A stretch of DNA of 64,000 bases from Nitrospirota bacterium (GCA_963818475.1 CAWFSF010000006.1:1888001-1952000), one strand, 5' to 3'; positions 20,446 through 64,000 are shown, counted from the first letter of the stretch. Notes: generated from the letters alone by a model not told the origin. Numbers and translations: made by a program.

Positions 20446-20503
20446 GAGCAACGCGCCTGATGCGCCGCCTTCTGGCGCGTCGCTGTCGAGGCGCAAGTTG
20501 GAA
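20446..20503 (-). repeat. attC-like integron recombination site
   Basis: TTCCAAC...GTTGCTC imperfect palindrome, very similar to the attC at 61828. Confidence 0.7.
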
Positions 20504-20553
20504 ATATCGGAACGGGGAACGTGCGGCGGAAGGCAAGTAATAGGAGCGTGGTG

Positions 20554-49777: not shown

Positions 49778-51772
49778 TCACAGAAAATAATCAAAATCCG
49801 TCTCGCGCTTCAGCTTCTTCCGCACCCGGAAGATGTTCCCCGGCATGACCTGCGGGTTGATCTGCACGAAGTTCCGCTCCCCTTCCCAGATGTACTTGTC
49901 GTCGCCGATCAGGTCGTGCACCAGGTAGGGCTTGTGCTCGCCCAGCCCGAGTTCCTCCACCGGGACCTTTACCCAGCCGGACTGGGTGTGAAAGGGGTCG
50001 AGGTTCACCACGATGATGAGGCTGTTCTCGCCGTCCTCGGTCGACTTGCCGTAACACAGCAGGTTGTCGTTCTCGGTCTCGTAGAACTCCAGGTTCCAGG
50101 TGGTCTGGAGCGCCTTGTTCTCCCGCCGTATGCGGTTGATGCGCGCGATCACGTCACGCAGGCTTTTGGGATCATCGAGATTCCAGCTTTTGATCTCGTA
50201 CTTTTCGGAATTAAGATACTCTTCCTTCCCGGGGATCGCCTCGTTCACGCAGAGTTCGAAGGCCGGTCCGTAGATCCCGATGTTCGAGGAGAGCGTGGCT
50301 GCCAGCAGATAGCGCGTAATGAACGCCGGCCTGCCGCCGTACTGCAGGTGCTCCGGCAGGATGTCCGGCGTGTTCGGCCAGAAGTTCGGCCGAAAGAGGT
50401 CACGGAGGTCGCTCTGCGTCAGCTCGGTCAGGTACTCCATGAACTCCCGCTTGGTATACCGCCAGGTGAAGTAGGTATAGGACTGGGCGAACCCGACCTT
50501 GCCGAGCCGGTACATGGTCTTGGGCCGCGTGAAGGCTTCGGCAAGGAAGAACACCTCCGGATGCTCTTTCCGGATACCGCCAATGAGCCATTGCCAGAAA
50601 GCAAAGGGTTTGGTGTGCGGATTGTCCACGCGGAAGATGCGCACGCCCTTCTTGATCCAGAACCGCACCACCCGCCCGATCTCCTCCCAGAGCGCTTTCC
50701 AGTCTTCGGTCTCGAAATTGAGGGGATAAATATCCTCATATTTTTTGGGAGGGTTCTCCGCGTACTGCACCGTATTGTCGGGCCGCCAGCGGAACCATGT
50801 CGGGTGGTCCTTCACATAGGGATGGTCGGGAGAGCACTGGAGCGCGAGATCGATCGCCACATCGATGTCCTGCTCCTTCGCCTTCTGTACGAACCGCTCG
50901 AAGTCCGGGATCGTGCCGAGGTCCGGATGGATTGCGTCGTGGCCGCCTTCTTCGGACCCGATGGCCCAGGGGCTCCCCACGTCGCCCGGCCCAGCCTTTG
51001 GCGCATTGTTCTTCCCTTTCCGCTCCGTTTTGCCGATGGGATGGATGGGCGGGAGATAGATCACGTCGAACCCCATCTCCTTGATATAAGGAATGAGCTT
51101 TTCGCAGTCCCGGAAGGTCCCGTGGGTCCCCTGCTCCGGCGTACAGGAGCGCGGGAAGAACTCGTACCAGGTGCTGAAGAGCGCCTTGGGAACATCCACG
51201 ACAACGACAAGTTCCTTGTCGTAGGACACGGAAAAAGCGCGGTCCGGAAAGGCAGCCATGAGATCGGCGAGCTTTTCGCTCAAGGCGAGGGACCCGGCCT
51301 CTGGGTCGTCCTTTTTCACCGCATCCGCCAGCCGGTCGCGGAGCGCCCGGAGTTCCTGTCGCTCCTTGCTATCTTCTCCGCGGCCAAGCGCAGACTCGAT
51401 CAGGATCAGCCCGGTCAGAAACTCCATCTTCACGTCCTGTTGCGCGTCCACCCTTTTTTTGAGGTCCCGCTGCCAGGTCTTGAAGTGGTCAACCCAGCCT
51501 TCCAGAGCATAGACGTAGGCGCCCAGTTCCGTGACCGTAAACCGCGCCTCCCACCTGTCGTTCAGCCGGGGCTCGAAGGGGACCTCTTTCCATGCCCCGC
51601 CCTTCTCATGTTTATACAGGAGCCGGGCAGAGAGCGAGTCATGGCCGTCCGAGAAAATGTCCGCGGACACGACCACGCTTTCACCTATCACGCGCTTGGC
51701 CGGGAACCTGCCGCAGTTGATCTCGGGTTTCACATTCTCGATAACGACCCGTTTTCTGCCGTCTTCTGCCAA
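49778..51772 (-). CDS. glgE: Alpha-1,4-glucan:maltose-1-phosphate maltosyltransferase
   Basis: Motifs WYEFFPRS, ENPPKKYEDIYP, FRVDNPHTKP, AEAFTRP and NTPDIL. Confidence 0.95.
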   Translation of the reverse strand: MAEDGRKRVVIENVKPEINCGRFPAKRVIGESVVVSADIFSDGHDSLSARLLYKHEKGGAWKEVPFEPRLNDRWEARFTVTELGAYVYALEGWVDHFKTWQRDLKKRVDAQQDVKMEFLTGLILIESALGRGEDSKERQELRALRDRLADAVKKDDPEAGSLALSEKLADLMAAFPDRAFSVSYDKELVVVVDVPKALFSTWYEFFPRSCTPEQGTHGTFRDCEKLIPYIKEMGFDVIYLPPIHPIGKTERKGKNNAPKAGPGDVGSPWAIGSEEGGHDAIHPDLGTIPDFERFVQKAKEQDIDVAIDLALQCSPDHPYVKDHPTWFRWRPDNTVQYAENPPKKYEDIYPLNFETEDWKALWEEIGRVVRFWIKKGVRIFRVDNPHTKPFAFWQWLIGGIRKEHPEVFFLAEAFTRPKTMYRLGKVGFAQSYTYFTWRYTKREFMEYLTELTQSDLRDLFRPNFWPNTPDILPEHLQYGGRPAFITRYLLAATLSSNIGIYGPAFELCVNEAIPGKEEYLNSEKYEIKSWNLDDPKSLRDVIARINRIRRENKALQTTWNLEFYETENDNLLCYGKSTEDGENSLIIVVNLDPFHTQSGWVKVPVEELGLGEHKPYLVHDLIGDDKYIWEGERNFVQINPQVMPGNIFRVRKKLKRETDFDYFL

Positions 51773-51789
51773 GGGATATTTCCTTTCAA

Positions 51790-51953
51790 CTTAAAAAGAG
51801 CAGTTCAGCCACAAAAGGCACATAAAGCACATAAAAAGCAAGCAATAATTTGATAAAGCGCTTCACCAAGAAGGTGACTATGCTTTTTGCGTTAAGAGAC
51901 TGATGTTACTATGTGAATTTTGTGACTTATGTGGCCAACTGCCGTATCCTAGG
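51790..51953. mobile_element. MITE-like element with terminal inverted repeats and 9-bp-periodic arms
   Basis: CTTAAAAAGAGCAGTT...AACTGCCGTATCCTAGG, with CACAAAAGG/CACATAAAG arms. Confidence 0.55.
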
Positions 51954-51993
51954 TTCAAAACTGATTTTTCAGCATCCATCGCAGTAGCGAAAA

Positions 51994-52077
51994 TCCCCCT
52001 CACCCCAGCCCTCTCCCACGAAGGGGAGAGGAAGTAAGAGGTAGCCCCTCCCTTGATGGGAGGGGTTGGGGAGGGTG
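51994..52077. repeat. REP-like palindrome (CCCTCTCCC/GGGAGAGG type)
   Basis: CCCTCACCCCAGCCCTCTCCC..GGGAGAGG; an inverted relative lies at about 18453-18490. Confidence 0.6.
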
Positions 52078-52752
52078 CTCATTTAGTATCCGAAAAAATA
52101 ATGGAAATGGTGATCTCCGTGGTTATTTTTCTATATCGCCCGGAACTTATTGATTTAATTATAACAGATGCATCCCAGGGCTGCGGCGGGCTCGAACCCT
52201 CTTTTTCCAAGAGATCCGGTACGGCCATTCGGCGCTTTGTGCATGACTGAAGAAGACGTGGCTGGCAAACGGACTATAAACCATCCGTCATTCGCGGAAC
52301 ATTTCAGAGCGGCAAGTTTTTCGATAATAAAATCGGCTCATCGAGAGCGCCTCTTACACCTGCCCGGGATTCCGCCGGAAGTGATCCAATACATTGGCAA
52401 ATATACCTTGACATGCCTGAATGAATAAAATATAGTTTTTTTGTCGCTGATCCCATTTACTACTTTCCAAAGAGTGCGCTTTTCCCTGCTCTCCGTTTAC
52501 ATCCGTCTCCTGAGCACTTGTTTCTTCCTGTCAGGGAATTTATTTTGTTCATTTGTCCCTGGGCTGAGGTCGGAAAAAACCCTGGACGCCACCCTCGCAC
52601 CGATTCAAAGATGACACTCATGTGCCTGTGCGTATTTGGTATGGCGAAAAAGCTTTGCGGGAAAAGGCCAAGGCAGCGGAGGGGAAATAGGGGCCGAAGA
52701 CACGAGCATGGCATGTCCAGTTCGGGAAAATCAAGGGCACCGAATTGGAAAA

Positions 52753-52861
52753 GTTTATCATAAACCGTAAAAGTTTATGATAGCAATAACCGGTTTACGT
52801 TATCATAAACTTGCTTATGTTATCATAAACCGACTTGCTTATAGTCAACAACATGTTAGTT
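52753..52861 (+). other. attI-like site heading the cassette array
   Basis: TTATCATAAAC three times (52755, 52800, 52820), one inverted copy (52773), and a GTTAGTT core at 52855 just before the first cassette RBS. Confidence 0.5.
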
Positions 52862-52888
52862 TTAAAATAAATTAAACGAGGTGCCTTT

Positions 52889-53179
52889 ATGACGAAAAAA
52901 AGCTGGACCTATCTATTGGGTTACACTGTATTATGCATGCTTGATATTCCGATATCAATTCGTTGGGGTGGCAGCGGAATTCATAGTGGGACGATTATCT
53001 TCATTCTAATAATGATGTTCACACCAATTATTAGCTCGCTATTAATCGCTCTTATTGCTGGTTTTCGTACTAAAAGTTATATTGATAAATTCAATTCAGT
53101 ATTTCCAAAAGCGATAGTTATTTGCGGCCTCTTTGTGGCTTTCTATCTTTTGACTGGCCTAATCATGCCTGGGGGTTGA
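52889..53179 (+). CDS. Cassette: small membrane protein
   Basis: 96 aa with three hydrophobic segments; RBS GAGGTG. Confidence 0.65.
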   Translation: MTKKSWTYLLGYTVLCMLDIPISIRWGGSGIHSGTIIFILIMMFTPIISSLLIALIAGFRTKSYIDKFNSVFPKAIVICGLFVAFYLLTGLIMPGG

Positions 53180-53291
53180 TTCTGGGGAAATAAGGGGACG
53201 TTGTTTCCATCCATGCTTTCCTTGCATGGGTTGGGGCAAGGCCGTAAGGCAAGCATAGAAACAACGTCCCCTGTGATCTCCTTTTGAAAAA

Positions 53292-53801
53292 TTGCCTCTG
53301 ACACCTGACGGTTATCCCGCCATTAGCTCAGTCGAAATCAAAGGAGTAAACCGTCCTTTTGACGTGACTGATTGGCAAAAATATCGTGCTGCAAGCAAGA
53401 ATGATCATGACCGTTTCTTTATTAGATCGATCGAAACGGAAGCTAAGCGCATCGCGACCCATCTTATGAAAAAACGTTGGTCTATTGTTTTCAGCGAAAG
53501 GGAAATGTTCATAACATCTGACAAGCCTGTTCTGCTGCAGCATCAATCAAAAAAGACATTTGGCTTTGGTACAGAGGGGACGATAGTGATGTTTCCTCTG
53601 TCACCTCGCAGACTCTTGGTAATGGATGATATGCATAAGGAGCCATCCAATCAATACTACCCTCTTATGCAGGAAAACGAAGGTGCATTCAATTATGGTA
53701 TTTGGCATAATGGCAGCCGATTTATGATAACAGGCCGTCCTGTTCCTGAGGTTCTACGCGAAATATTAGCATGGACCGATGGGCCGGCAAAACTTATCTA
53801 G
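53292..53801 (+). pseudogene. Cassette: 5'-truncated DUF4238-like protein
   Basis: Motif FITSDKPV...FPLSPRRLL typical of the C-terminal half; no good start codon or RBS. Confidence 0.55.
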
Positions 53802-53803
53802 GA

Positions 53804-53863
53804 TGCTAACCATTCGGCTCGAGAGGGTCGCGAAAACCGCGCCCCTCAGCCGAGCCGTTAGTA
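53804..53863 (+). repeat. attC site
   Basis: TGCTAAC CATTCGGCTCGAG...CTCAGCCGAGCC GTTAGTA. Confidence 0.85.
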
Positions 53864-53880
53864 TCTGAGGTGTTGATAGA

Positions 53881-54186
53881 ATGGACAAACAGATAAAATG
53901 CAAGAACTGTAACAACTCATTTGACCCACGGAATAATCGTTTATTCGTGTTTGACTCACTTCCAAAAGAAGAGAAAATGTGGCCATCACCAGCTCTTGAA
54001 AATATGCATAAGGAATGGTGGAATTTTAATATCGTGAAGTGTCCGCAATGCGGAAATCAATTCCGGACAAAAGAGCTAAAGCTGCTCGGTGTGTTTTCTC
54101 CGATGGGGCTTCTTGTATTCGTAATATCTTTTGATATTTCATTGGTTTTATATTTTATTTTTGTTGTTTTGAAAGTGCGATTCTAA
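53881..54186 (+). CDS. Cassette: zinc-ribbon membrane protein
   Basis: CKNC...CPQC and a C-terminal TM helix. Confidence 0.65.
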   Translation: MDKQIKCKNCNNSFDPRNNRLFVFDSLPKEEKMWPSPALENMHKEWWNFNIVKCPQCGNQFRTKELKLLGVFSPMGLLVFVISFDISLVLYFIFVVLKVRF

Positions 54187-54222
54187 CTTGCGGGCACGAC
54201 GCGCAAAAGCTGCGTGTTAGGA
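54181..54222 (+). repeat. Short or internally deleted attC site
   Basis: TTCTAAC...GTTAGGA, only 42 bp. Confidence 0.55.
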
Positions 54223-54229
54223 GGACGTT

Positions 54230-54721
54230 GTGAACAATACACATACTCTAAAATACTCAAGAGACCTGGTTACGAGGGCGGTACGGTCATTCTTTCTTCG
54301 GAAACTGGGTGCTAGCTACTTCATTGCACTTCTCCTGCTTGTCGGCTACCTCATGTATGACTTGAATGGGGGAGACCGCTCATGGTTTGTCGGCATAATG
54401 GGAGCAATCTTAGGTTTTGGTATTCTCGTTCCATTGGCAGCAATGTTTGGGCACATACGTCTCGGTCTCCGAAAGCTCGCTGAAATGCCAGACGCTACCG
54501 CAACCATGACCATCACTGATAACGGACTCGTAGTGCGATCTGCAATTGGGTCGTATGAGATTACTTGGCGGACCATCACCGAGGTATGGCAATATCCTGA
54601 TTACTGGCTGCTGCTATCAGGCCGTCACTTCCTCATGACGCTACCAATAATTGAATTGCGTGATGACGAAAGAAAGTCTATTCAGGCTGCCCTTCAGAAG
54701 GCGAATATCAAATTCGCCTAG
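54230..54721 (+). CDS. Cassette: YcxB-like membrane protein
   Basis: Two TM helices, then TITDNGLVV...EITWRTITEV. Confidence 0.65.
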   Translation: MNNTHTLKYSRDLVTRAVRSFFLRKLGASYFIALLLLVGYLMYDLNGGDRSWFVGIMGAILGFGILVPLAAMFGHIRLGLRKLAEMPDATATMTITDNGLVVRSAIGSYEITWRTITEVWQYPDYWLLLSGRHFLMTLPIIELRDDERKSIQAALQKANIKFA

Positions 54722-54744
54722 CGGGGCTATCACTCCGACGATGA

Positions 54745-54803
54745 TTCTAACCATTCGGCTTGAGCGGGTCGCGAAAACCGCGCCCTCAGCCGAGCCGTTA
54801 TAT
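54745..54803 (+). repeat. attC site
   Basis: Nearly identical to 53804-53863. Confidence 0.85.
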
Positions 54804-54831
54804 TGACTGTCGAGCACTAGGAACGTGTGAC

Positions 54832-55551
54832 ATGACGAAATGTTCTCGATATCTTTTACATGCCCTCCTTTCAGTCGTTGCGTTCTTTGTGGTGTGTACA
54901 CTACAAAGCCAAGCAGCTGCGGTGTCGGACGTAATGCATTTTACAGATGACTACCCAACGTGCTCTTTCTCGGCGATTGACGCGAAAACCGGTAATCCAG
55001 TCAAGAATGTATTCGCTATTGCGGAATGGTACAAGGATGTCAGTGTGATGGAGTATGCTACAACGCTATGCCGGAATGCCTACAGAGTACGGTCCGATGG
55101 ATCGGTGTTCTCCATACCTGCTGCTCGTTGCTCGGGATTCCGTCATAACACAACCTTGGAGGTTCGTGTTAAAGCATTAGGATATCGAGTAAAGAAAATT
55201 CGGATATTGAGGCGCCCAAAGACTTCTCACCTTATTCCTCATATCACTTATCTGCCCATCAAAGACTGCGGTAAGGTTCCCCAACTATTGCCACTTGAAA
55301 AAATCCAATCGATCGATAAGGCGCTCGAACAGTATCAAGACAAATATAATCGAGATCAAATTGCAACAGTGTATGGTAATACCGAGACCTATCATGACCA
55401 AATGGTGTCGGAGCTCAAGAACTTTGACCCTCGTCTTGATGTCTCCGAAGCGAGAAAGTCCTATTGCGGAGTCGTACTCAAAGACATTCCTCAGACTGAG
55501 AATAGAGCCAAACTGATCGAATGGACAGAGCCGTACTGCACGGACCGTTGA
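54832..55551 (+). CDS. Cassette: secreted hypothetical protein
   Basis: Signal-peptide-like N-terminus; lies between attC sites. Confidence 0.6.
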   Translation: MTKCSRYLLHALLSVVAFFVVCTLQSQAAAVSDVMHFTDDYPTCSFSAIDAKTGNPVKNVFAIAEWYKDVSVMEYATTLCRNAYRVRSDGSVFSIPAARCSGFRHNTTLEVRVKALGYRVKKIRILRRPKTSHLIPHITYLPIKDCGKVPQLLPLEKIQSIDKALEQYQDKYNRDQIATVYGNTETYHDQMVSELKNFDPRLDVSEARKSYCGVVLKDIPQTENRAKLIEWTEPYCTDR

Positions 55552-55576
55552 CCGAACGGAGACATCGGTAAGAACG

Positions 55577-55632
55577 TCATAACGAGTCGTTCCACGCCGA
55601 CCGCTGCGCGGCGTGTGAACTCGTCGTTCTCT
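55577..55632 (+). repeat. attC site
   Basis: TCATAAC GAGTCGTTCCACGCCG...CGGCGTGTGAACTCGTC GTTCTCT. Confidence 0.8.
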
Positions 55633-55781
55633 CCGGCGCTGCGCGCCGGAGAGAACCCCCGGGGCTGAGCCATGAGCTCCTTCCCGGCGCGAGCGCGCCG
55701 GGAGAACCAGGAGCTGGAGACCAATGGACCTGCGGTCCATGGCTCAGCCCCGGGGGTTATACCTGAGAGAAGGTAGGGAAG

Positions 55782-56358
55782 ATGAAAAATAAGAAATACA
55801 AATTTTGGAGCGATATATTTCCTATCATAATCTCGGTTATCGCTCTATTTTTTTCAGGTATAAGCCTTTGGCACTCGGATGCTTCATTAACCCTTAGTGA
55901 AAAAACTGCAAAACCATATTTAGATATAAAATTTAAAAAATATTCAGGCAATGATGAATATTACACATTAAAAAGAACTGCTGCCGGTGTCCAAGTAAGC
56001 TTTCAATTTGAACTTGAGAATACAGGCGCTGTGCCTATTACTGATGTATCAATATCAAAATTTGTATTTTATAACCGCAATAAAAATACAAAACAGACTA
56101 TAGAAAACAGCATCGAAAAAATGGTGATCTACCCAGGGAAAAGCAAACTTCTTATTGAAAGCATTCTCTTGGATCGATTCGATATTTCGTAAGGAAGCTG
56201 CCTGGAAGTTAGCACAAAAAGAAGGTTTTATTTTTGATATCGAATTTACTGTAGAGTATTCCAATATTATTGACAGAACAATAAAAACTAAAAGTGAAAT
56301 GGGATACAAATTCAGTAAGGCATTTGCCGAGATTACAAAAAATATATTAGTTGAATGA
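55782..56358 (+). CDS. Cassette: AT-rich hypothetical protein with an N-terminal TM helix (frameshift near 56170)
   Basis: Two overlapping ORFs between attC sites. Confidence 0.55.
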
Positions 56359-56370
56359 CAATTAGAAAGG

Positions 56371-56426
56371 TAATAACAAATCGTTCCACGCCGACCGCTT
56401 CGCGGCGTGTGAACTCATCGTTAGAG
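56371..56426 (+). repeat. attC site
   Basis: Nearly identical to 55577-55632. Confidence 0.85.
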
Positions 56427-56438
56427 GTCAGATCTATT

Positions 56439-57449
56439 ATGAAAATTTCAATTATACTAGGAATCATTGGGGCGTGGCTTGCCACCAATATGCTATTGCC
56501 AATCTTCCTTAGATCTTTAGAGCGCGTTTATCAAACGCAGATTGACAGTGTGATAAAAAGTGGATGTCGTTTAACCAAAGTCGTTATGCTTAGCTTGCTT
56601 CAAGGAATTCTTATCATATATTTTGCGCCCAGCATATTGATTATTGGTGTTGTCGAGCGTGTTTATCCACGTTTCTTTGAGCTGCCAGTAATCAAGCGAT
56701 CATCCGTGTACTCGTCACTACATTTGCTGTTCACTAGACGTTTCTGGATGGTGCTGGCTGAAGATTTTAGAAACACTGTAAAAATAAGAAAATTGAATAC
56801 GGCTCAAGCATCATCATTAAATGATACTCAAGAAGCATTTGTAGCTGACGTTGCTAAACAATCCAAGAGCAAGATGAATGTTAGATTAAAGAATGCCTTG
56901 AAGTATTTTTCTGTATTTTTCGCCGGTCTTATTATCGGCGCCTTTCTTATTGAGACCATTGAAATGCATTTACGCCCATCTTACCGCGATTTAATCATCA
57001 GAACGCATTTGAAAACGGAGCAAGAATTCCTAGCCTCCCGTGCTGCCCGAGAGAATAAGCATCTTGAGGCAGCATTTCATCGATGGGCTGTAGTCAATGC
57101 TGAATCGGATGAGGGGTTTCGCGTCTTTCAAGAACATGGTGTTGAACTTGATGATCAACCATATACATACCCCTTTGACATGTATATGCTGAAGTGGATG
57201 TCCTCAGGCGCAAATATTAAGAAAGGCCGTAAGATTGTTGAAGGGTTTGACAGGGGAAAACTGGCCGTTGCGTTGGAAGCACTGGGGCAAAAGAAAGAAG
57301 CCGAAAATCAATGGCAGAGCGCACAAATTCTAATTCATCGAAAAACAATCAAAGAAACAAAGGAAGCAGTTTACGTCATGCTTGAACAAGAAAAATCCGA
57401 TATTCATCTGAAGGCCGAAGACAAGATTCTTGGAAAAAAGAAAGAATGA
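56439..57449 (+). CDS. Cassette: membrane protein (possibly two fused cassette genes)
   Basis: ATG after the attC; a second signal/TM-like segment starts at MNVRLKNALK. Confidence 0.6.
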   Translation: MKISIILGIIGAWLATNMLLPIFLRSLERVYQTQIDSVIKSGCRLTKVVMLSLLQGILIIYFAPSILIIGVVERVYPRFFELPVIKRSSVYSSLHLLFTRRFWMVLAEDFRNTVKIRKLNTAQASSLNDTQEAFVADVAKQSKSKMNVRLKNALKYFSVFFAGLIIGAFLIETIEMHLRPSYRDLIIRTHLKTEQEFLASRAARENKHLEAAFHRWAVVNAESDEGFRVFQEHGVELDDQPYTYPFDMYMLKWMSSGANIKKGRKIVEGFDRGKLAVALEALGQKKEAENQWQSAQILIHRKTIKETKEAVYVMLEQEKSDIHLKAEDKILGKKKE

Positions 57450-57450
57450 G

Positions 57451-57507
57451 TACCAACATGCCGGTCCACATCGACTCGCCTTGCGGCGAGTGACCGGCGT
57501 GTTGGGC
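57451..57507 (+). repeat. attC site
   Basis: TACCAAC ATGCCGGTCCAC...GTGACCGGCGT GTTGGGC. Confidence 0.8.
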
Positions 57508-57551
57508 AGCATGAAAGCCGATCATTGTCACACAGTTTCTCGGGAGTCGAA

Positions 57552-58619
57552 ATGACAGTGAAGATCTGCAGCCTGTTGCTGACAATCTCCGTGTGCTGCG
57601 CAGCGCTTCAGGCTTGCGCGGAAGATTCACGTGTGGCGGAACCCTCCACCAAAGAGTGTCCGGATCTGACCGGTACCTATGAGGTGCGCATTCCCGCGTG
57701 GGCCGATAGGGTCCACCCCTTGGGGCAGCGCCCGAGGATGGGGACCCGGCAGTTCGCCATGTTCCAGCGCCACGGCGGTGGCTTCACGCTGATCTGGCAC
57801 GCGCCCCGGGAGGAGTTCCTGGCGGCGGCCCGATCGCTGGCCCAGCGCGATCCCTACAGGTACGACGTATGGCTGGACAGGATGTTGCGCGATCCCAAGC
57901 TGCCATTGCCGCTCGGCATAGCCAGCGAGCATGACTGGCTCGGGCGACTCGGGAGCGTTGGTCCGGTTTTCCGGGGGGTCGACGAGGTCCTGCAGCTCAA
58001 GCAGTGCAAGCGCGGCTGGTTTCTTGTTTCAGGCCCCGGGCATCGCGATGGCCCGCCCGATTTCGAAGGTGGCATGGAAGGCACGCGCGAACTGGAACTC
58101 TGGCTGGGGCGCGACAAGGACGGCTCGGTCAGCCTGAAGGCGGAGGAGCACCGGACCCTGGTGCTCCTGAGGGAGAGTCTATATACCCCATATCTCGCCA
58201 TACGCCTGGGGTCGTCAGCACGCTCGAGCAAATGGCCGGTTGCGCCCGCGCAGGACCTTACCCCCATCCGCGCGGAGGAGCTGCCTGAGCGCAATCGTCC
58301 TGCCAGGCCCGTTCCGAAGTGCCAGATCACCGGCGACCATGAGGCGGTGTTCTTCCAGCGCCTGAAGGCAAATCTGCCGCCAAAGGTGGAGATTGAAAAT
58401 TACTCATCCAGCATTATCCATGGCCTCATGCGCCCGGACGGGGTTTGCGATCCGACACCCTACACGGTGACCGTCTCGGCGCCAGATGCCGCTGGCATCG
58501 CGAAGGTGGCGGACTACCTGCGTACCGACCCCTTTATCCGGCAGATCGATTCGCAGGAGTCACAAGTTCTGTGGGATGGAAGGCTGATGGTGAAGTTCCG
58601 CATGATGGCCGCGCCGTGA
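57552..58619 (+). CDS. Cassette: GC-rich exported protein or lipoprotein
   Basis: LQAC lipobox-like sequence and a CPDLTGTY motif; much more GC-rich than its neighbours. Confidence 0.65.
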   Translation: MTVKICSLLLTISVCCAALQACAEDSRVAEPSTKECPDLTGTYEVRIPAWADRVHPLGQRPRMGTRQFAMFQRHGGGFTLIWHAPREEFLAAARSLAQRDPYRYDVWLDRMLRDPKLPLPLGIASEHDWLGRLGSVGPVFRGVDEVLQLKQCKRGWFLVSGPGHRDGPPDFEGGMEGTRELELWLGRDKDGSVSLKAEEHRTLVLLRESLYTPYLAIRLGSSARSSKWPVAPAQDLTPIRAEELPERNRPARPVPKCQITGDHEAVFFQRLKANLPPKVEIENYSSSIIHGLMRPDGVCDPTPYTVTVSAPDAAGIAKVADYLRTDPFIRQIDSQESQVLWDGRLMVKFRMMAAP

Positions 58620-58645
58620 GGAAGGGGCGAACGCCATAACATGCC

Positions 58646-58723
58646 GCCCAACCTTCAGTTGCACCGGAGCGTCAACAGTCGCCTTCGGCGCCTATCGCCG
58701 CCCGGTGAACTGAGTCGATAGTT
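58646..58723 (+). repeat. attC site with a mutated R' core (GAT instead of GTT)
   Basis: GCCCAAC CTTCAGTTGCACCGG...CCGGTGAACTGAGTC GATAGTT; the left flank complements the cassette start at 57501 at 12/13 positions. Confidence 0.75.
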
Positions 58724-58727
58724 TTGA

Positions 58728-60011
58728 GTGGAGATTAACTTGAACGAGTCAAGTAAAGCAGATTCTGAGAAAAGCGTATTAAGCAGACTGATCGAAATTG
58801 CAGACCATTTCGCGTTGCGCGATAATCTTTGCAGCGAATTGCCATCATATAAGAAAGCCGATACAGAACCTCAAGCTGCCAAAAGACGTGACTTTGCTAA
58901 TTTGCTCGCAAGTATTCAGGCAGAAGAAATTGCTATTTTCCAGAAGTTAGTCGCATTGAAAGACGATGTGGAACGATATTTTACCGCTCACGGATTAAAC
59001 AAAAAAGAAATTGAAATGGTTGCCGCTTTTAAACCGTTTCAGCTTGCTTTGCATTTTATAAAGAAGAACAAAAAAGAACAAAACGGTACCCCACCTAAAG
59101 GAAACTATTACTCGCTTATCTTCAATAACAAACCATCGTTGTCAGCAGACATGACACCTGTGCTGGCCTATGTATCCTTTGCTGGCGATGATGGCGATTT
59201 GTTCCCGGTAGTTGAACTAATTCTAGATTTGATAAAAATATGGGATATGTTCTTGCTAAATCACACGGAAATTGATATCAAAGAGTTTGAAAAAGGAATC
59301 CTGAACGTTAAAAATAAGAATACAGTTCACAGTGCACCACTTCCGAGAGGATTAATGTCAACTGCAGCAAAAGCAGTCAAACGACAACATACAACAACGC
59401 CTGTGAGCGATAAGAGGAAAATCGCACTAGAAAAAGATATTACTGATAGATTAAATACAATTGCTTTCCATTTTGAAGAAAGGGATGCACTTAGCAAAGA
59501 GCTCACTCAATATACTGGCGCTGATTTGAAATCCTCATCGGCGCGCTACGCAAACCTAAAGAGATTACTCACTCGGATAGAGCAACAGGAAGTCGATGCA
59601 TTATATGAGCTTGTTCACTTGCAGGACAATGTTAAAAAGTATCTCGCTGCTATCGGATCAATCTCGGCAGAGATTAAAGCCATTGATGAATTTAGATCGT
59701 TTCGCGTGGCCGCCAATTATGTAAATATACATAAACATGGAATACGAGGAAGAAATGCCAAGTCTGCCAAGCATGATTATACTTATATATTTTATGATCG
59801 AAAAGGCGACAAGAGTTTACCCGATGATCCGATTGACGAAGTGGCAAATGTCATAAACTATGATGGCAGCTTAATTCCTGCTACTGACATCATTTTGCAT
59901 TTAATAATAGCGTGGGAGATGTTCATTAAATATCATACGCAAATTGACTTCGTTACTTTTAATCGAAGAATTGATGCAGTCCGATCAAGACATCAAGGTG
60001 AAGTGATGTAG
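58728..60011 (+). CDS. Cassette: hypothetical protein with an internally duplicated helical domain
   Basis: Two homologous halves of about 200 aa each. Confidence 0.7.
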   Translation: MEINLNESSKADSEKSVLSRLIEIADHFALRDNLCSELPSYKKADTEPQAAKRRDFANLLASIQAEEIAIFQKLVALKDDVERYFTAHGLNKKEIEMVAAFKPFQLALHFIKKNKKEQNGTPPKGNYYSLIFNNKPSLSADMTPVLAYVSFAGDDGDLFPVVELILDLIKIWDMFLLNHTEIDIKEFEKGILNVKNKNTVHSAPLPRGLMSTAAKAVKRQHTTTPVSDKRKIALEKDITDRLNTIAFHFEERDALSKELTQYTGADLKSSSARYANLKRLLTRIEQQEVDALYELVHLQDNVKKYLAAIGSISAEIKAIDEFRSFRVAANYVNIHKHGIRGRNAKSAKHDYTYIFYDRKGDKSLPDDPIDEVANVINYDGSLIPATDIILHLIIAWEMFIKYHTQIDFVTFNRRIDAVRSRHQGEVM

Positions 60012-60099
60012 AGCGCGCCCATCCCGGATGGTTTGACAAGCCATGCCAGGCGGCTTTCCGACGAGAGAAAGAAGCTTGATATATTATAAGAAGTACACG

Positions 60100-60149
60100 T
60101 TATAACCTGTCGTTCGAGCCGCCTATGGCGGCTCAACTCGTCGTTAACC
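60100..60149 (+). repeat. Short attC site
   Basis: TTATAAC CTGTCGTTCGAGCCGCC TAT GGCGGCTCAACTCGTC GTTAACC. Confidence 0.7.
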
Positions 60150-60290
60150 ATTTCAGAGATTAGAGCAATTGAGTGTTCAGTCAACATTAATCCATAGCAA
60201 GGAGGTGATGTGCAATCAATATTGGCAACGTCATTATCTGCTAATCTAGTTCTTGGCGAAAGATAACTTTAACTACTTCAGGAGGAAAAT

Positions 60291-60773
60291 ATGAAGATTT
60301 TTCGGGTTATATTCACGGTGATTTGCTCCTTGTCATTAACGGTAATAGGAAATAATCTTTATGCTGAAGAACAGCAAGACATACCGGCAACAATCCGACA
60401 GCATCTAAGAATGTGCGTTACTAAATTTTACTCTTTACCAGTATCAAAAAGAAATAATTTAGATACTTGTCAAAAAGCACCATTAAACCTTCCAAAACCT
60501 GAAGGCGTAGCAGAAACAGTCATTGACACATGGGATGCCAAACCTATCTTTACAGTAATATTGTCGGACGGTAGATCCCTGACACAAATCGGAGAGAGGC
60601 TTATCGTTATGCCTACGCTACCCAAAGCAGATGAATCGACGAGCAAATCGACTCATGGCAGCGTCACATGTGGGGTAGGCAAGGGGGATATAAATTGGTG
60701 CAAGACTGCAACATACGCTTGCTACTGGCACGGCGATGTATTTGATCACTGCCAAAGAACCGGATATTGGTAA
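60291..60773 (+). CDS. Cassette: secreted hypothetical protein
   Basis: RBS AGGAGG, signal peptide, Cys-rich C-terminus. Confidence 0.7.
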   Translation: MKIFRVIFTVICSLSLTVIGNNLYAEEQQDIPATIRQHLRMCVTKFYSLPVSKRNNLDTCQKAPLNLPKPEGVAETVIDTWDAKPIFTVILSDGRSLTQIGERLIVMPTLPKADESTSKSTHGSVTCGVGKGDINWCKTATYACYWHGDVFDHCQRTGYW

Positions 60774-60888
60774 TACGACAAGAGCCCAACTTCAAATGCT
60801 TGGTCCGACTGGATAAGGCAATGTAGAGGAGTGAGTTTCCTATGTAGCTGCTCGATACCCTAAATAAAGAAAAGATATCTCGTAATTG

Positions 60889-60947
60889 ATTTAACCGGCG
60901 GGTCGAGAGGGGCGGCTGATAATGCGCCTCTCACCCGCGTGTTAATC
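60889..60947 (+). repeat. attC site
   Basis: ATTTAAC CGGCGGGTCGAGAGG...CCTCTCACCCGCGT GTTAATC. Confidence 0.8.
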
Positions 60948-60968
60948 AATTCTCAGACGAGGTGCGCT

Positions 60969-61223
60969 ATGAATCCCATCGAAAAAAAAGTTGTAAAAGT
61001 CATTGGCGTGGTTGGTTGGATTTTAGTAGGTCTCGGCGGTTTATTTACAACATGGCTTCTTATCAGAGGATTTTCCGAAGGTATGAAGGAACCAATGTTG
61101 ATGCTATTTCTCATTACCCTTATATTCTGCAGCGTTGCAGTCGGCATGTTCTTCGTCATTCTTAATATTGTTGTAAAACTGATGATAAGAATTGCCGGGA
61201 ATACTGAAAGAGCAATTTCGTGA
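60969..61223 (+). CDS. Cassette: small membrane protein with two TM helices
   Basis: RBS GAGGTG; two hydrophobic segments. Confidence 0.6.
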   Translation: MNPIEKKVVKVIGVVGWILVGLGGLFTTWLLIRGFSEGMKEPMLMLFLITLIFCSVAVGMFFVILNIVVKLMIRIAGNTERAIS

Positions 61224-61297
61224 GCGTTGAAATGATCGTTGTAAATATATCCGCAAAATGATAATATTTAGACAGGTCAAAGCGAAGGAGGTATTTT

Positions 61298-61519
61298 ATG
61301 CGCGTTAAAGACCTTCCTGAAATATCCAATTTAACCATCCCTGAGAAAATTTTGCTCGTTGAGGACCTATGGGACAGTATTTCCGCGGATGAAACATCCA
61401 TTCCAATACCAGAAAGCCACAAAACAGAACTCGATGCGAGACTCAAGCGATATGAATCTACTCCGGGCGCCCTCCTGTCTCTTGATGACCTTCGAACAAG
61501 AATCGAAAAGAGAAAATGA
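61298..61519 (+). CDS. Addiction-module antitoxin component
   Basis: Motif EKILLVEDLWDSI...ELDARL. Confidence 0.82.
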   Translation: MRVKDLPEISNLTIPEKILLVEDLWDSISADETSIPIPESHKTELDARLKRYESTPGALLSLDDLRTRIEKRK

Positions 61520-61821
61520 CATATCATCTTCGTTTTCTGCCCGAAGTCGAAGATGATGCCGTCAGTGGCCTTTCATGGTATGAAACGAAATCGCCGGGAT
61601 TAGGCGATGAATTTCTTCGAATGTTCTATGCCTGCGCCGGCGATATTCCTCGCAATCCTCTCCTTTATCGAAAAGTGTACGAAGAATTCAGGCGCTGTTT
61701 GATCAGAAGATTCCCCTACGCTATCTACTTCACTATAAAGAATGACCAGATCATCGTAACCGGTCTATTTCATTGTGCACGTGATCCACACCGCGTCGAG
61801 TCGCTGCTATCAGGCCGATAA
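61516..61821 (+). CDS. RelE/ParE family toxin
   Basis: Motif WYETKSPGLGDEF...RRFPYAIYF...FHCARDP; overlaps the antitoxin. Confidence 0.85.
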   Translation: MTYHLRFLPEVEDDAVSGLSWYETKSPGLGDEFLRMFYACAGDIPRNPLLYRKVYEEFRRCLIRRFPYAIYFTIKNDQIIVTGLFHCARDPHRVESLLSGR

Positions 61822-61827
61822 AACTGA

Positions 61828-61886
61828 TTTTAACCAGCGCCTCGACAGCAACGCGCCAAAGGCGGTGCGTCAGCCGCGTGTTATAC
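61828..61886 (+). repeat. attC site
   Basis: TTTTAAC CAGCGCCTCGAC...GTCAGCCGCGT GTTATAC. Confidence 0.75.
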
Positions 61887-62075
61887 AGTGAAAAAGACGT
61901 TCCGATTGCTTGATCTGCAAAATATGCAGATACGATTGGTAAAGAATGGTTCCGCTTCATGGCGTGGCTTTTGATTATCAGCGTACCTGAATGGAATTCT
62001 TCCCGCGTTGAAAGGAATTATCTAAAGGCAAGTAGAAGCTTGACGATAAACAGATCATAAAAAGGAGGTCAGGTT

Positions 62076-63791
62076 ATGCGAAAGTTAATTATCAGTATGG
62101 GAGTTGCAGTATTTTTTGTCATCGCATCGGTTGGTTCTCAGAATAAGGCCTTTGCCGGCAACAACGTATGGACCACGAACGGACCTAATGTTTCGGCAGT
62201 CAAAGCGATAGCTGTATCGCCGAACTATGCTACTGATCGCACGATCTATGCCGGTACATGGGGGGATGGCGTTTTCAGATCGGTCAACGGCGAAGAGACC
62301 TGGACGAACATCGGACTGCCGTTTGAAGGGAACCTTGTCGGCGGGCTTGCGATATCACCGAATTATGCAAGCGATCATACGCTGTATATCGGGACAGTCA
62401 CACATTTATACAAGTTCATCGACAATGGTTCTGGCGGCGGAACCACGACGGAGGTGAACGTGACATTGTGGCCGAGTATTCCCGACATCTATCCCGTTGC
62501 CGTGTCGCCAAATTACGAAAGCGACCGCACCGTATTTGCGGCCGTCATGAACCAGGGGATGTACAAGATAAGTGATCTGTTGAGCGGCCCGACGGCAACA
62601 CTGATCACATCGTTTCCCACCTATTTCACGTCGTTCGTCGTATCGCCGAATTACGCCGCTGACCATACGCTCTTCGCCGGGACCCCGGGCAACGGGCTCT
62701 ATAAAGTGGTTGAGAACCCCTCAGGCGCCGCGACCCGCACCCTGGCAAACGCCATCTTTACTGATCTCCAGGTAAGCGCCGTGGGCATATCTCCGAGTTA
62801 TGCTGCCGACCAGACCGTATTTGCCGGAACGATCTACGGCGTGATCGTAACAAACAATAATTTCGCGACCGTCTGGCCCACGAGCTGGGCATACGGTTCC
62901 ACGTATAACATTCTATCCATCGCCGTTTCTCCTAACTACGCTGCTGACCGCACAGTATTCGCAGGAACAGCCGGCAAGGGTGTGATCAAATCAACCGACG
63001 GCGGGGCGACTTGGACCCAGGTAAATGTCGGATTCTCGCCCGTGAGCGAGACTTACTTTGTCGATGCCGTTGCCGTGGTTCCAAATTACAGCACTGACCC
63101 CACTATTTTCTCCGAAAAGGATTATAACGTATGGAGCTATTCATTCGCTCCGCTGACGCTCAGTTCGACGATAACAGCACCCCGGAACGGCGCCACCCTC
63201 AGGGGCATCACTTCTGCGATCACGGGTACGGCATCGGGAGGCCCATCCGGCCTGAGCAAGGTCGAAGTATCGATCAATGCAGGAGCCTGGCAAACAACCA
63301 CCGGTACGACATCCTGGAGCTATCCCTGGACATTGCCGAGCGACGGGATTTATTCTCTGCAGTCACGTGCGACAAACACGCAAGGCAACCAAGAGGTGCC
63401 GGGAGTCGGGATCAGAGTGGTGGTAGACAACACGAGACCGGCATCGGCAATTGCAGGCGTTAAATGGAAAAAAATTGATAATAAATGGTTCATTACCGTA
63501 TACGGCACTGCTGCAGACGGTATCGGATCGGGCGTGTCGCGCGTGGAGGTCGGATTCTCCACTGCCCAAATCGGCGGGTTGACCCTGCCCGGCCGCTTAG
63601 TCATACCCCGTGGAACTATAGGTACAGTATGGAAGCCTGCCAACGGGACAAACAAGTGGAGCTATACGTTCAGCGTGCCGTCAACATGGACTAAGTATCA
63701 TGGAAAGAAATTCAAGATACAGAGTCGCGCAAAGGACAGGGCCGGAAATCTCGAAGTGCCAGGCCCAGGTATTAGCGCAACCATCCCTTGA
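62076..63791 (+). CDS. Secreted beta-propeller (BNR-like repeats) protein with Ig-like domains
   Basis: Signal peptide; about 7 xSPxYxxDxTxxxG repeats; STDGGATW Asp-box; two Ig-like modules. Confidence 0.8.
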   Translation: MRKLIISMGVAVFFVIASVGSQNKAFAGNNVWTTNGPNVSAVKAIAVSPNYATDRTIYAGTWGDGVFRSVNGEETWTNIGLPFEGNLVGGLAISPNYASDHTLYIGTVTHLYKFIDNGSGGGTTTEVNVTLWPSIPDIYPVAVSPNYESDRTVFAAVMNQGMYKISDLLSGPTATLITSFPTYFTSFVVSPNYAADHTLFAGTPGNGLYKVVENPSGAATRTLANAIFTDLQVSAVGISPSYAADQTVFAGTIYGVIVTNNNFATVWPTSWAYGSTYNILSIAVSPNYAADRTVFAGTAGKGVIKSTDGGATWTQVNVGFSPVSETYFVDAVAVVPNYSTDPTIFSEKDYNVWSYSFAPLTLSSTITAPRNGATLRGITSAITGTASGGPSGLSKVEVSINAGAWQTTTGTTSWSYPWTLPSDGIYSLQSRATNTQGNQEVPGVGIRVVVDNTRPASAIAGVKWKKIDNKWFITVYGTAADGIGSGVSRVEVGFSTAQIGGLTLPGRLVIPRGTIGTVWKPANGTNKWSYTFSVPSTWTKYHGKKFKIQSRAKDRAGNLEVPGPGISATIP

Positions 63792-63913
63792 TAGGGGGAA
63801 CACAGAATAGGCCCAAGCATTTCGAGGACAAGGACAATATATACAATACAAGAGGTGCGCTTCCTCATAACATAGATGCCCTCTTGGAATATACAAAGCC
63901 GAAACAAAAATGA

Positions 63914-63972
63914 TCCAAACCAGCCGGTCGAGTCCCGCGCTGATAGGCGCGGGGCCCACCGGCGCGTTCTTG
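63914..63972 (+). repeat. attC-like site
   Basis: TCCAAAC CAGCCGGTCGAGTCCCGCGC...GCGCGGGGCCCACCGGCGC GTTCTTG. Confidence 0.65.
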
Positions 63973-64000
63973 CGGCAGCCAAAGCCTTTCGCCTTTCTTT

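Follow-up and report, generated by a model that had tools for sequence, protein, structure and literature searches.

Arrays of gene cassettes that stand without an integrase are a familiar part of integron biology, and the class has numbered in the hundreds since 2016. The survey of Cury et al. (2016, PMC4889954) reports 279 attC-site clusters without an integron-integrase (CALINs), half of them in genomes without an integrase gene (intI) and 15 with a pseudo-intI nearby; it proposes integrase loss as one origin of these clusters and, in the search it describes, looked for attI by exact match to classes 1-3 only. In the figures given in PMC2426708, about one third of intI genes are pseudogenes. 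In Xanthomonas, intI has been inactivated lineage-wide and is usually kept as a pseudogene, according to the account of Colombi et al. (2025, 10.1101/2025.06.18.660453). The array discussed here belongs to this landscape. It spans positions 52856-63972 of a 64,000-nucleotide stretch of DNA from a Nitrospirota bacterium (hereafter the window; G000:C6:1888001-1952000), and the assembly from which it comes (G000) measures 4.66 Mb in 7 contigs, with 91% completeness and 6% contamination.

We read this locus as a decayed chromosomal integron that is now inert, i.e., a CALIN whose platform has been kept, and assign to this reading a probability of roughly 0.7. It contains 12 co-oriented cassettes, its leader shares ancestry with a platform that is linked to an integrase elsewhere, and no intact intI is present in the assembly. 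An earlier note, made from the sequence alone, had proposed either a CALIN that kept its attI and is served in trans or a decayed integron; the platform homology and the lack of an adjacent intI fit both descriptions, and for the service in trans no intact intI was found in the assembly. An intact platform of the kind found in this bacterial family comprises a divergent intI, ∼0.5 kb with promoters, a gene for a protein of 112 amino acids (aa), palindromic repeats, and an AAYAAC-NN-G|TT core (together the attI), followed by the cassettes. Here, on this reading, intI has been deleted outright; the small gene is broken, and still in place are a promoter that faces outward, the repeats and core of the attI, and 12 cassettes whose attC sites are structurally sound. 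The promoter probably still transcribes the first cassettes, and the ParE/RelE pair of cassette 11 probably helps to retain the array. Without IntI the cassettes would be frozen, and their movement could resume only with an integrase supplied in trans.

How does the locus compare with the described systems? Like the CALINs of PMC4889954, as characterized in that survey, it has two or more attC sites that share one orientation and are spaced by under 4 kb (the largest gap between neighboring listed sites is ∼2.1 kb, and ten of the 12 sites are recognized by covariance models, named R1 and R2 below), no integrase in its neighborhood, and cargo mostly of unknown function. Unlike the CALINs as presented there, it keeps a recognizable attI together with a Pc-like promoter and the broken copy of a platform gene, and because these still stand at the array head, an origin by platform decay is directly readable. 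It resembles the Xanthomonas integrons beside ilvD, as described by Colombi et al. (2025), in that the platform is fixed beside a housekeeping gene, intI is inactivated throughout a lineage, and the arrays persist, but it differs from that description in that intI is wholly deleted and in that the genome holds many separate arrays, not one. With the Vibrio-type sedentary integrons, in the terms of the 2024 Sci Adv article (PMC13108822), it has in common shared attC families (90-100% identity), a toxin-antitoxin (TA) cassette, and cargo that mostly belongs to no known family; unlike those described there, it has only 12 cassettes and no integrase, and the arrays lie at 13 or more places. A sedentary integron is expected to carry more than 19 attC sites or to be present in all genomes of the species, its attC sites resembling one another; this array has 12 sites and is missing from this locus in the closest relative (G003). 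Integrase-less arrays and the decay of intI are already well documented, and the present array is a clear but ordinary example of them.

The cassette boundaries are marked by AAC...GTT imperfect palindromes on the plus strand. The eleven palindromes that the earlier note had described were all found in place, at 53804-53863, 54181-54222, 54745-54803, and 55576-55632 (sites 1-4), at 56371-56426, 57450-57507, 58646-58727, and 60099-60149 (sites 6-9), and at 60888-60947, 61827-61886, and 63914-63972 (sites 10-12). Its total of eleven has to be raised by one, owing to an attC-like site (site 5, 55648-55762, also on the plus strand) that closes a 130-bp cassette without an open reading frame (ORF). 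The two near-identical pairs that it had pointed out were recovered as well, with 94.5% identity over 55 nt for 53804/54745 and 95.2% over 42 nt for 55577/56371. Between the sites, from 52889 to 63791, all ORFs of sizeable length that fit are on the plus strand, and the strong contrast in base composition among co-oriented cassettes is real: in 400-nt windows, the G+C content along the array runs from 0.33 to 0.667, vs a contig mean of 0.54-0.56.

The palindromes have the features of attC sites: R″/R′ boxes, imperfect L″/L′ stems, and a structure conserved above the sequence. The weak exceptions are the short site at 54181-54222 and the perfectly paired one at 55648-55762. When folded as the top strand, each site carries its extra bases on the 5′ arm, which makes this the longer arm; in known attC sites, too, the longer arm is the 5′ arm on the top strand, in line with the description given in PMC4889954. 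In the alignment of the ten sites of similar length, no site departs from the AAC and GTT ends. A covariance model built from these ten window sites (R1), for which RNAalifold gave 14 pairs, eight of them with compensatory changes, found in the window only its ten training sites, at 33.8-58.1 bits, plus a lone match at 20446-20504 on the minus strand (25.2 bits); the minus-strand echoes of the sites reached at most 20 bits.

For a second model (R2), 22 sites lying beyond the window were used, 15 from arrays elsewhere in the same genome and seven from four other genomes (G010, G011, G016, and G027). In its training alignment (A3), 86.9% of the cells pair, vs 73.5% in shuffles, and nine pairs change on both sides; covariation as high as that observed was reached in 0 of 500 shuffles, and sliding the partner lowered the pairing to 24-48%. 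With R2, nine of the 12 sites in the window reach 27.5-63.6 bits (E values of 1.5e-5 to 1.2e-16), the short site, at 54180-54222, only 16.6 bits (E 0.034), and the lone site at 20446-20504(−) 42.8 bits, with no other match in the window above 13.6 bits. Taken together, R1 and R2 recover ten of the 12 sites, every one on the plus strand; the models do score sites, and the outcome that the earlier note had named as fatal to its proposal, i.e., that no site would be scored, did not occur. The sites at 58646-58727 (82 nt) and 55648-55762 (115 nt) have long central parts and for this reason went unscored with both models; against 200 shuffles, both fold better than all (z −4.67 and −11.08, respectively). 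The site at 54181-54222 folds no better than chance (z −1.04, with 35 of 200 shuffles equal).

As for the lone site at 20446-20504(−), it is of the sequence type of the site at 61827-61886 and sits between two small minus-strand ORFs that match nothing in Pfam; a cassette standing alone, away from any att site, may be what it represents. The single attC sites lacking integron-integrases (SALINs) and the attG sites described by Loot et al. (10.1101/2022.09.11.507474) would, on the terms set out there, account for it and for the other lone attC sites of the genome (18 in all); the array itself falls outside this description, having at its head a bona fide attI, as judged by homology.

The second pillar of this reading is the leader. 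The attI-like character that had been proposed for it is borne out by homology, since window positions 52400-52864 correspond to an integrase-linked stretch in a relative of the same family (G027): 52569-52864 matches L029:4257-4561 with 83.9% identity over 305 nt, and 52400-52507 matches L029:4760-4870 with 77.5% over 111 nt. The 1 kb next to glgE, which had been described as holding no recombinase ORF, indeed holds none; it is not empty, as it contains a promoter and a pseudogene. The Pc-like promoter (TTGACA-17-TATAGT, 52408-52436, plus strand) agrees with the consensus at 11 of 12 positions and points into the array, and its block is conserved in G027 and in G003 in alignment A2. The pseudogene (52574-52765, plus strand) was found by tblastn with the 112-aa protein of G027. 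Residues 49-112 remain, with 76.6% identity over 64 aa and an in-frame TAG at a conserved Trp codon; the first 48 codons are gone, and the alignment places a deletion of ∼165 nt at its 5′ end.

The attI itself (52753-52861, plus strand) was delimited by motif positions and homologous leaders. It consists of four copies of a 13-bp palindrome, GTTTATCATAAAC, at 52753, 52773 (inverted), 52799, and 52819, i.e., within 52753-52831, and of the core AACAAC-AT-GTTAGTT (52847-52861), with the crossover presumed at G|TT, 52855/52856. A four-way alignment shows the promoter block, the ORF (112 aa in G027), a set of repeats whose first copy overlaps the ORF's end, and the core, which reads TATAGTCAAYAAC-NN-GTTR; the loci share nothing beyond the GTT, which is what a crossover point would lead one to expect. 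The pattern AAYAAC-NN-GTTR has a single occurrence in the whole window, at 52847. Of 64 public loci, 29 carry it no more than 350 nt past the small gene, vs two matches in 559 kb of background from the remainder of these loci. By homology and anatomy, then, an attI would stand at the array head, as in a complete integron. A palindrome cluster with the same spacing heads two further arrays of this genome (C1:270 kb and C2:51.8 kb), and a fourth head (C2:486-488 kb) carries a diverged copy, split by an insertion with a DDE transposase gene inside. A 281-nt leader query found matches in 11 of 60 other genomes; the same family accounts for 11 of 36, and the other families of the phylum for 0 of 24.

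The small gene between the promoter and the attI deserves attention in its own right. Its intact copy (L029:4361-4699, minus strand) encodes a conserved, basic protein of ∼112 aa with 835 database homologues at E ≤1e-5, none of them informatively named; the family has a median pI of 9.9, and the match to DUF5710 is below threshold (24.9 bits, cut-off 26.5). The AlphaFold2 model has a mean pLDDT of 78, and no known fold was recognized in it: with this predicted structure Foldseek returned nothing from the PDB at E ≤0.001, the highest Z from VIA-align, run on 48,161 chains, was 4.0, and the ESM Atlas offered only clusters named “hypothetical protein”. The best 80 of 330 genome loci were examined; Nitrospirota, Geobacteraceae, and Desulfuromonadales are represented, the cultured Geomonas silvestris and Geobacter argillaceus among them, and 72 of the loci have at least 1.5 kb of upstream sequence. 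An IntI-like sequence lies divergent from the small gene, usually ∼0.5 kb upstream, in 38 of these 72 loci (28 near full length, 10 fragments), and the other 34 have no intI in the upstream flank of 2.1-6 kb. R2 produced 26 matches in 13 of the 80 loci, all of them downstream and on the strand of the small gene. The attI repeats vary by lineage (GTTTATCATAAAC, GTTTGTAATATTACAAAC, GCATCTAATATTAGATGC, and CATCTACCGGTAGATG) around a constant AAYAAC-NN-GTTR core, and the first repeat is always encoded in the last codons of the small gene (L036-L109, 190 nt 3′ of the gene). Such lineage-varying repeats beside a fixed core suggest a lineage-specific DNA-binding partner; our guess is that the small protein could be the one that binds the repeats. 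In the literature searched, there was no description of a gene lying between intI and attI or of a DUF5710 protein in an integron.

Where, then, is the integrase? The orientation of the sites places the expected platform on the glgE side, and the absence of a tyrosine recombinase ORF there, already pointed out in the earlier note, was confirmed: 51773-52880 is overlapped by 36 frames (stop to stop, 25 aa or longer), none of them recombinase-like, and the longest, besides glgE and its antisense frame, has 112 aa. The IntI model TIGR02249 had no match at the leader, and tblastn with the G027 IntI gave none in C6:1939773-1940900 at E up to 10. Thus, the intI that a complete integron has beside its array, a tyrosine recombinase gene with the IntI-specific extra domain, is missing from this one. 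Across the 91%-complete assembly, TIGR02249 (cut-off 265 bits) and tblastn found no intact intI and four IntI-like remnants, at C6:1772159-1772389, C6:86471-86683, C5:457310-457459, and C3:170987-171070. The first (∼C6:1772162-1772398) lies divergent ahead of another array and is the nearest to the present one, ∼168 kb from its head (C6:1940.7 kb). By eye, it looks like an IntI N-terminal-type extension fused to an IntI C-terminus. One further candidate was a 346-aa recombinase (C3:51408-52214, minus strand), with 105 and 101 bits on TIGR02249; it was rejected as the missing IntI, since model positions 179-234, the IntI-specific stretch, are unmatched. ORFs of 346 aa with near-identical scores occur at seven places in G016, whereas in this genome the ORF is single-copy; it probably belongs to a mobile element that exists in multiple copies.

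Relatives show what the intact arrangement looks like. In G027, a divergent 370-aa recombinase stands beside the homologous leader and scores 337.9 bits on TIGR02249; in G016, a frameshifted IntI beside the homologous leader reaches 301.7 bits. By eye, G027 has a second frame upstream of the intI core (L029:4900-5760), an N-terminal extension (..YRKWLLYFLDF..), and this frame is preceded by a GAAC-N4-GTTC palindrome that resembles a LexA box. IntI above the TIGR02249 cut-off was found in three genomes of other genera (G010, G016, and G027) and in neither of two genomes of the same genus, G003 (71% complete) and G005 (92% complete). The closest relative is G003, with 94% protein identity for glgE and 95% for the hydrolase gene on the other side; the interval between them measures 5.4 kb there vs 14 kb here. 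What G003 has there instead (L035, G003:C1:220000-233000) is a second pair of HigBA genes, two ORFs that are unrelated, and an insertion sequence (IS) in HigB. The second HigB/HigA is flanked by a duplicated stretch of ∼75 bp, an ORF combining DUF4124 and glutaredoxin is present, and the DDE transposase sits inside the first HigB. To judge from these sequences, the array has been altered since the two genomes split, because the G003 locus has neither attI nor attC.

The array is not alone in its genome. With R1 at E ≤0.01, the assembly gave 63 attC hits, i.e., 13 co-oriented clusters (at least two sites within 4 kb) and 18 singles, all of these counts being lower bounds, as 150 of 2478 first-look candidates were scored; at E ≤1, R1 had 78 matches in the remainder of the genome. 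Clusters and lone sites are spread over five contigs, and their sequence types are common to separate arrays at 90-100% identity and also to same-genus genomes, where the array has 13 matches, 12 of attC size and a single one of 238 nt. Contigs from a soil metagenome that contains 5% of the sampled words matched 51700-64000 with short pieces on the promoter, the leader, the attC sites, and cassettes 8 and 11, and one joint linked 61839 to 63965 with 12 foreign letters between and a depth of 3.4. These pieces and the joint stem from related organisms or repeats and have no bearing on excision.

Several observations weigh against a decayed and inert array. The strongest rival sees the array as one active component of a distributed integron: a single integrase, encoded at some other place (the unassembled 9%, a plasmid, or a mobile element that arrives), would act in trans on several attI-bearing arrays, so that the cassettes here would still turn over. 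Given the incompleteness and the contamination of the assembly, its missing portion could harbor an intact intI. No decay is visible in the attI repeats, in the core, or in most attC sites, whose structures are intact, and this is compatible with continued use. The cargo of the window cassettes was found in none of five same-genus genomes (65-92% complete), so that it is unique among congeners, and G003 matches the window up to 52471, promoter block included, with no small-gene remnant, no attI, and no R1 match; the change of the array since the split could reflect recent integrase activity and cassette gain here, or a deletion in G003. Both G003 and G005 carry an intact small gene and no detected intI, which weakens the argument that the two genes decayed jointly. 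In addition, the independence of R2 is only partial, since its training sites were chosen with R1. A service in trans would also suit a genome in which four or more array heads carry the leader (C6:1940.7 kb, C1:270 kb, C2:51.8 kb, and C2:486-488 kb) and at least 13 attC clusters, and it has parallels: in G010 (100% complete) and G016 (98%), intact IntI and intact copies of the small gene and leader lie at separate places (in G010, IntI at C1:554 kb and C2:448 kb, and the small gene at C2:652 kb and C15:1717 kb), and among the 34 public loci with no intI upstream of the small gene at least five have downstream attC matches. What speaks against it is that 4.66 Mb hold four intI fragments and no intact gene, and that the small gene is broken here and at three other heads, all four detectable copies being partial or interrupted by stops. 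On balance, this alternative is unlikely, yet it carries real weight.

Two other explanations fare far worse. Could the palindromes be ordinary intergenic repeats, of the REP or terminator kind, in a variable island? The genome is indeed rich in other dispersed repeats, and the site at 54181-54222 folds like its shuffles; however, the invariant AAC and GTT ends, the covarying stems, the uniform strand, the stop codon that precedes each site, the leader homologous to an intI-linked platform, and the finding in relatives (L029 and L032) that sites of this type stand downstream of an IntI recognized by the curated model make this highly improbable. Least probable of all is a complete integron with its integrase just outside the window or on the 3′ side, in an inverted arrangement. 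The window does end only 28 bases past the last site, and the earlier note had allowed for an intI beyond base 64000; but the contig extends for ∼400 kb, the genes seen 3′ of the last attC are a 285-aa ORF, HigB/HigA, a hydrolase, MscS, and a Na/Ca exchanger, with no integrase among them, and the nearest IntI-like fragment is the one ∼168 kb away. The decayed integron is the reading that we retain.

Turning to the cargo, cassette 1 (52856-53857; attC 41.6 bits under R2) contains a membrane-like ORF of 96 aa (52889-53179), a hairpin (∼53193-53272), and an N-terminally truncated DUF4238 ORF (53292-53801), in which only profile positions 169-247 of 281 are matched by Pfam. The hairpin, found in 53180-53290 between the two ORFs, has a 15-bp stem and a z of −5.2; it was considered as a hidden attC and rejected, because its order is GTT...AAC, the wrong one. 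Parts of it recur at C5:529.8-530.9 kb, beside another attC cluster. Cassette 2 (53858-54216) encodes a 101-aa protein with weak zinc-ribbon matches below the Pfam cut-offs and is closed by the weak, short attC (33.8 bits under R1, of which it is a training site). Cassette 3 (54217-54797; attC 27.5 bits under R2, as for the values that follow) encodes a 163-aa YcxB-like protein (PF14317, 27.3 bits), and cassette 4 (54798-55626; 58.2 bits) has an ORF that ends at 55551 and is without a family match; the attC of the latter has an odd R′ box, GTTCTCT.

This oddity adjoins cassette 5 (55627-55756), which is read as a cassette without an ORF, 130 bp long. It consists of the branched hairpin of site 5, bounded by GAGAAC...GTTATAC, and the preceding 19 nt, and this unit fits exactly from the GTT of site 4 to its own GTT. 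The hairpin is a 115-nt three-way structure with almost perfect pairing, no spacer or bulge, and −50.2 kcal/mol, and it occurs once in the genome. Removal of cassette 5 would, to judge from the sequence, bring back a canonical GTTATAC after site 4. The cassette may carry a structured RNA or DNA element instead of a gene.

Cassette 6 (55757-56420; 56.5 bits) is AT-rich (G+C 0.33), with an ORF at 55782-56192 and 56155-56358 that is apparently split by a frameshift, as seen by eye, into pieces of 136 and 67 aa. Cassette 7 (56421-57501; 50.8 bits) has an ORF ending at 57449 and without a family match, and the same lack of a match holds for the GC-rich 364-aa ORF (57525-58619, G+C up to 0.667) of cassette 8 (57502-58721), with its long attC, supported by the fold (z −4.67), and for the 427-aa ORF of cassette 9 (58722-60143; 35.7 bits), which is made of two repeated halves. 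Cassette 10 (60144-60941; 46.9 bits) encodes 160 aa with a signal-peptide-like start. Cassette 11 (60942-61880; 63.6 bits) carries a membrane ORF of 94 aa, an antitoxin (61298-61519), and a ParE/RelE toxin (61516-61821). The RelE/ParE cassette announced by the earlier note is thus present: the antitoxin matches PF09720 with 56.4 bits, and the toxin matches PF05016 (ParE_toxin) with a borderline 23.9 bits (cut-off 23). The two genes overlap by 4 nt (61516-61519), and together they have the predicted make-up of a type II TA system. Cassette 12 (61881-63966; 36.9 bits) encodes a secreted repeat protein of 571 aa (62076-63791) with weak family matches only. All 12 cassettes lie on the plus strand.

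Overall, Pfam recognizes in the cargo the truncated DUF4238, the YcxB-like protein, weak zinc-ribbon and DUF matches, and the Unstab_antitox/ParE_toxin pair, and it has no match for five of the larger proteins. Against PADLOC and NCBIfam, the cargo gave only DUF4238-Pers, a weak match at 19 bits, and sub-threshold matches for the 571-aa protein; within the genome itself, tblastn found as paralogues only distant ParE-like genes and one weak match to the 571-aa protein.

The array is fixed between host genes. On its left, and divergent from it, lies glgE (maltosyltransferase, 49778-51772, minus strand; Pfam GlgE_dom_N_S 193.6 bits, GLGE_C 96.7 bits), with 93% DNA identity to G003. Beside it, a BLAST of the leader against the genome revealed two dispersed repeat elements, at ∼51785-51958 and ∼51994-52078. 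The former has copies at C5:21496-21668 (94.8%) and C3:264447-264544 (98%), and also on C2 (95-98% overall); the latter (∼51994-52077) has dozens of matches across the genome. On the 3′ side of the last attC come, in order, the 285-aa ORF, which is lipoprotein-like, a dispersed inverted-repeat element (L009:12942-13100) with 96% copies on C2 and C3, and HigB/HigA, followed further on by a GDE_C glycoside hydrolase, MscS, and the Na/Ca exchanger. The two short dispersed elements that flank the locus (51785-51958 and L009:12942-13100) resemble miniature inverted-repeat transposable elements (MITEs).

What does this locus mean for integron biology? It is a clean case of how a CALIN can originate, in which the platform is kept, so that the loss of intI is seen and not guessed. 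It also illustrates that attI can be recognized outside classes 1-3 by comparison with relatives, and that attachment heads frequently stand without their integrase. A wider proposal, which we put forward tentatively and at somewhat less than even odds, is that the integrons of this Nitrospirota family, of Geobacteraceae, and of Desulfuromonadales share a previously undescribed platform module, and that the present array is a decayed member of a distributed system. In such a module, a basic protein of ∼112 aa would be encoded between Pc and attI, with its last codons forming the first of 3-7 palindromic repeats; the small protein, or the N-terminal extension of IntI, would bind the repeats and aid or control recombination at attI. 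One integrase might serve several attI-bearing arrays in trans, because heads made of the small gene, the repeats, and the core often stand apart from intI. If the module is functional, it would add an extra component to the textbook integron platform, and an unnamed, widespread small protein wired into the attI region of an environmental integron clade may outweigh the array itself.

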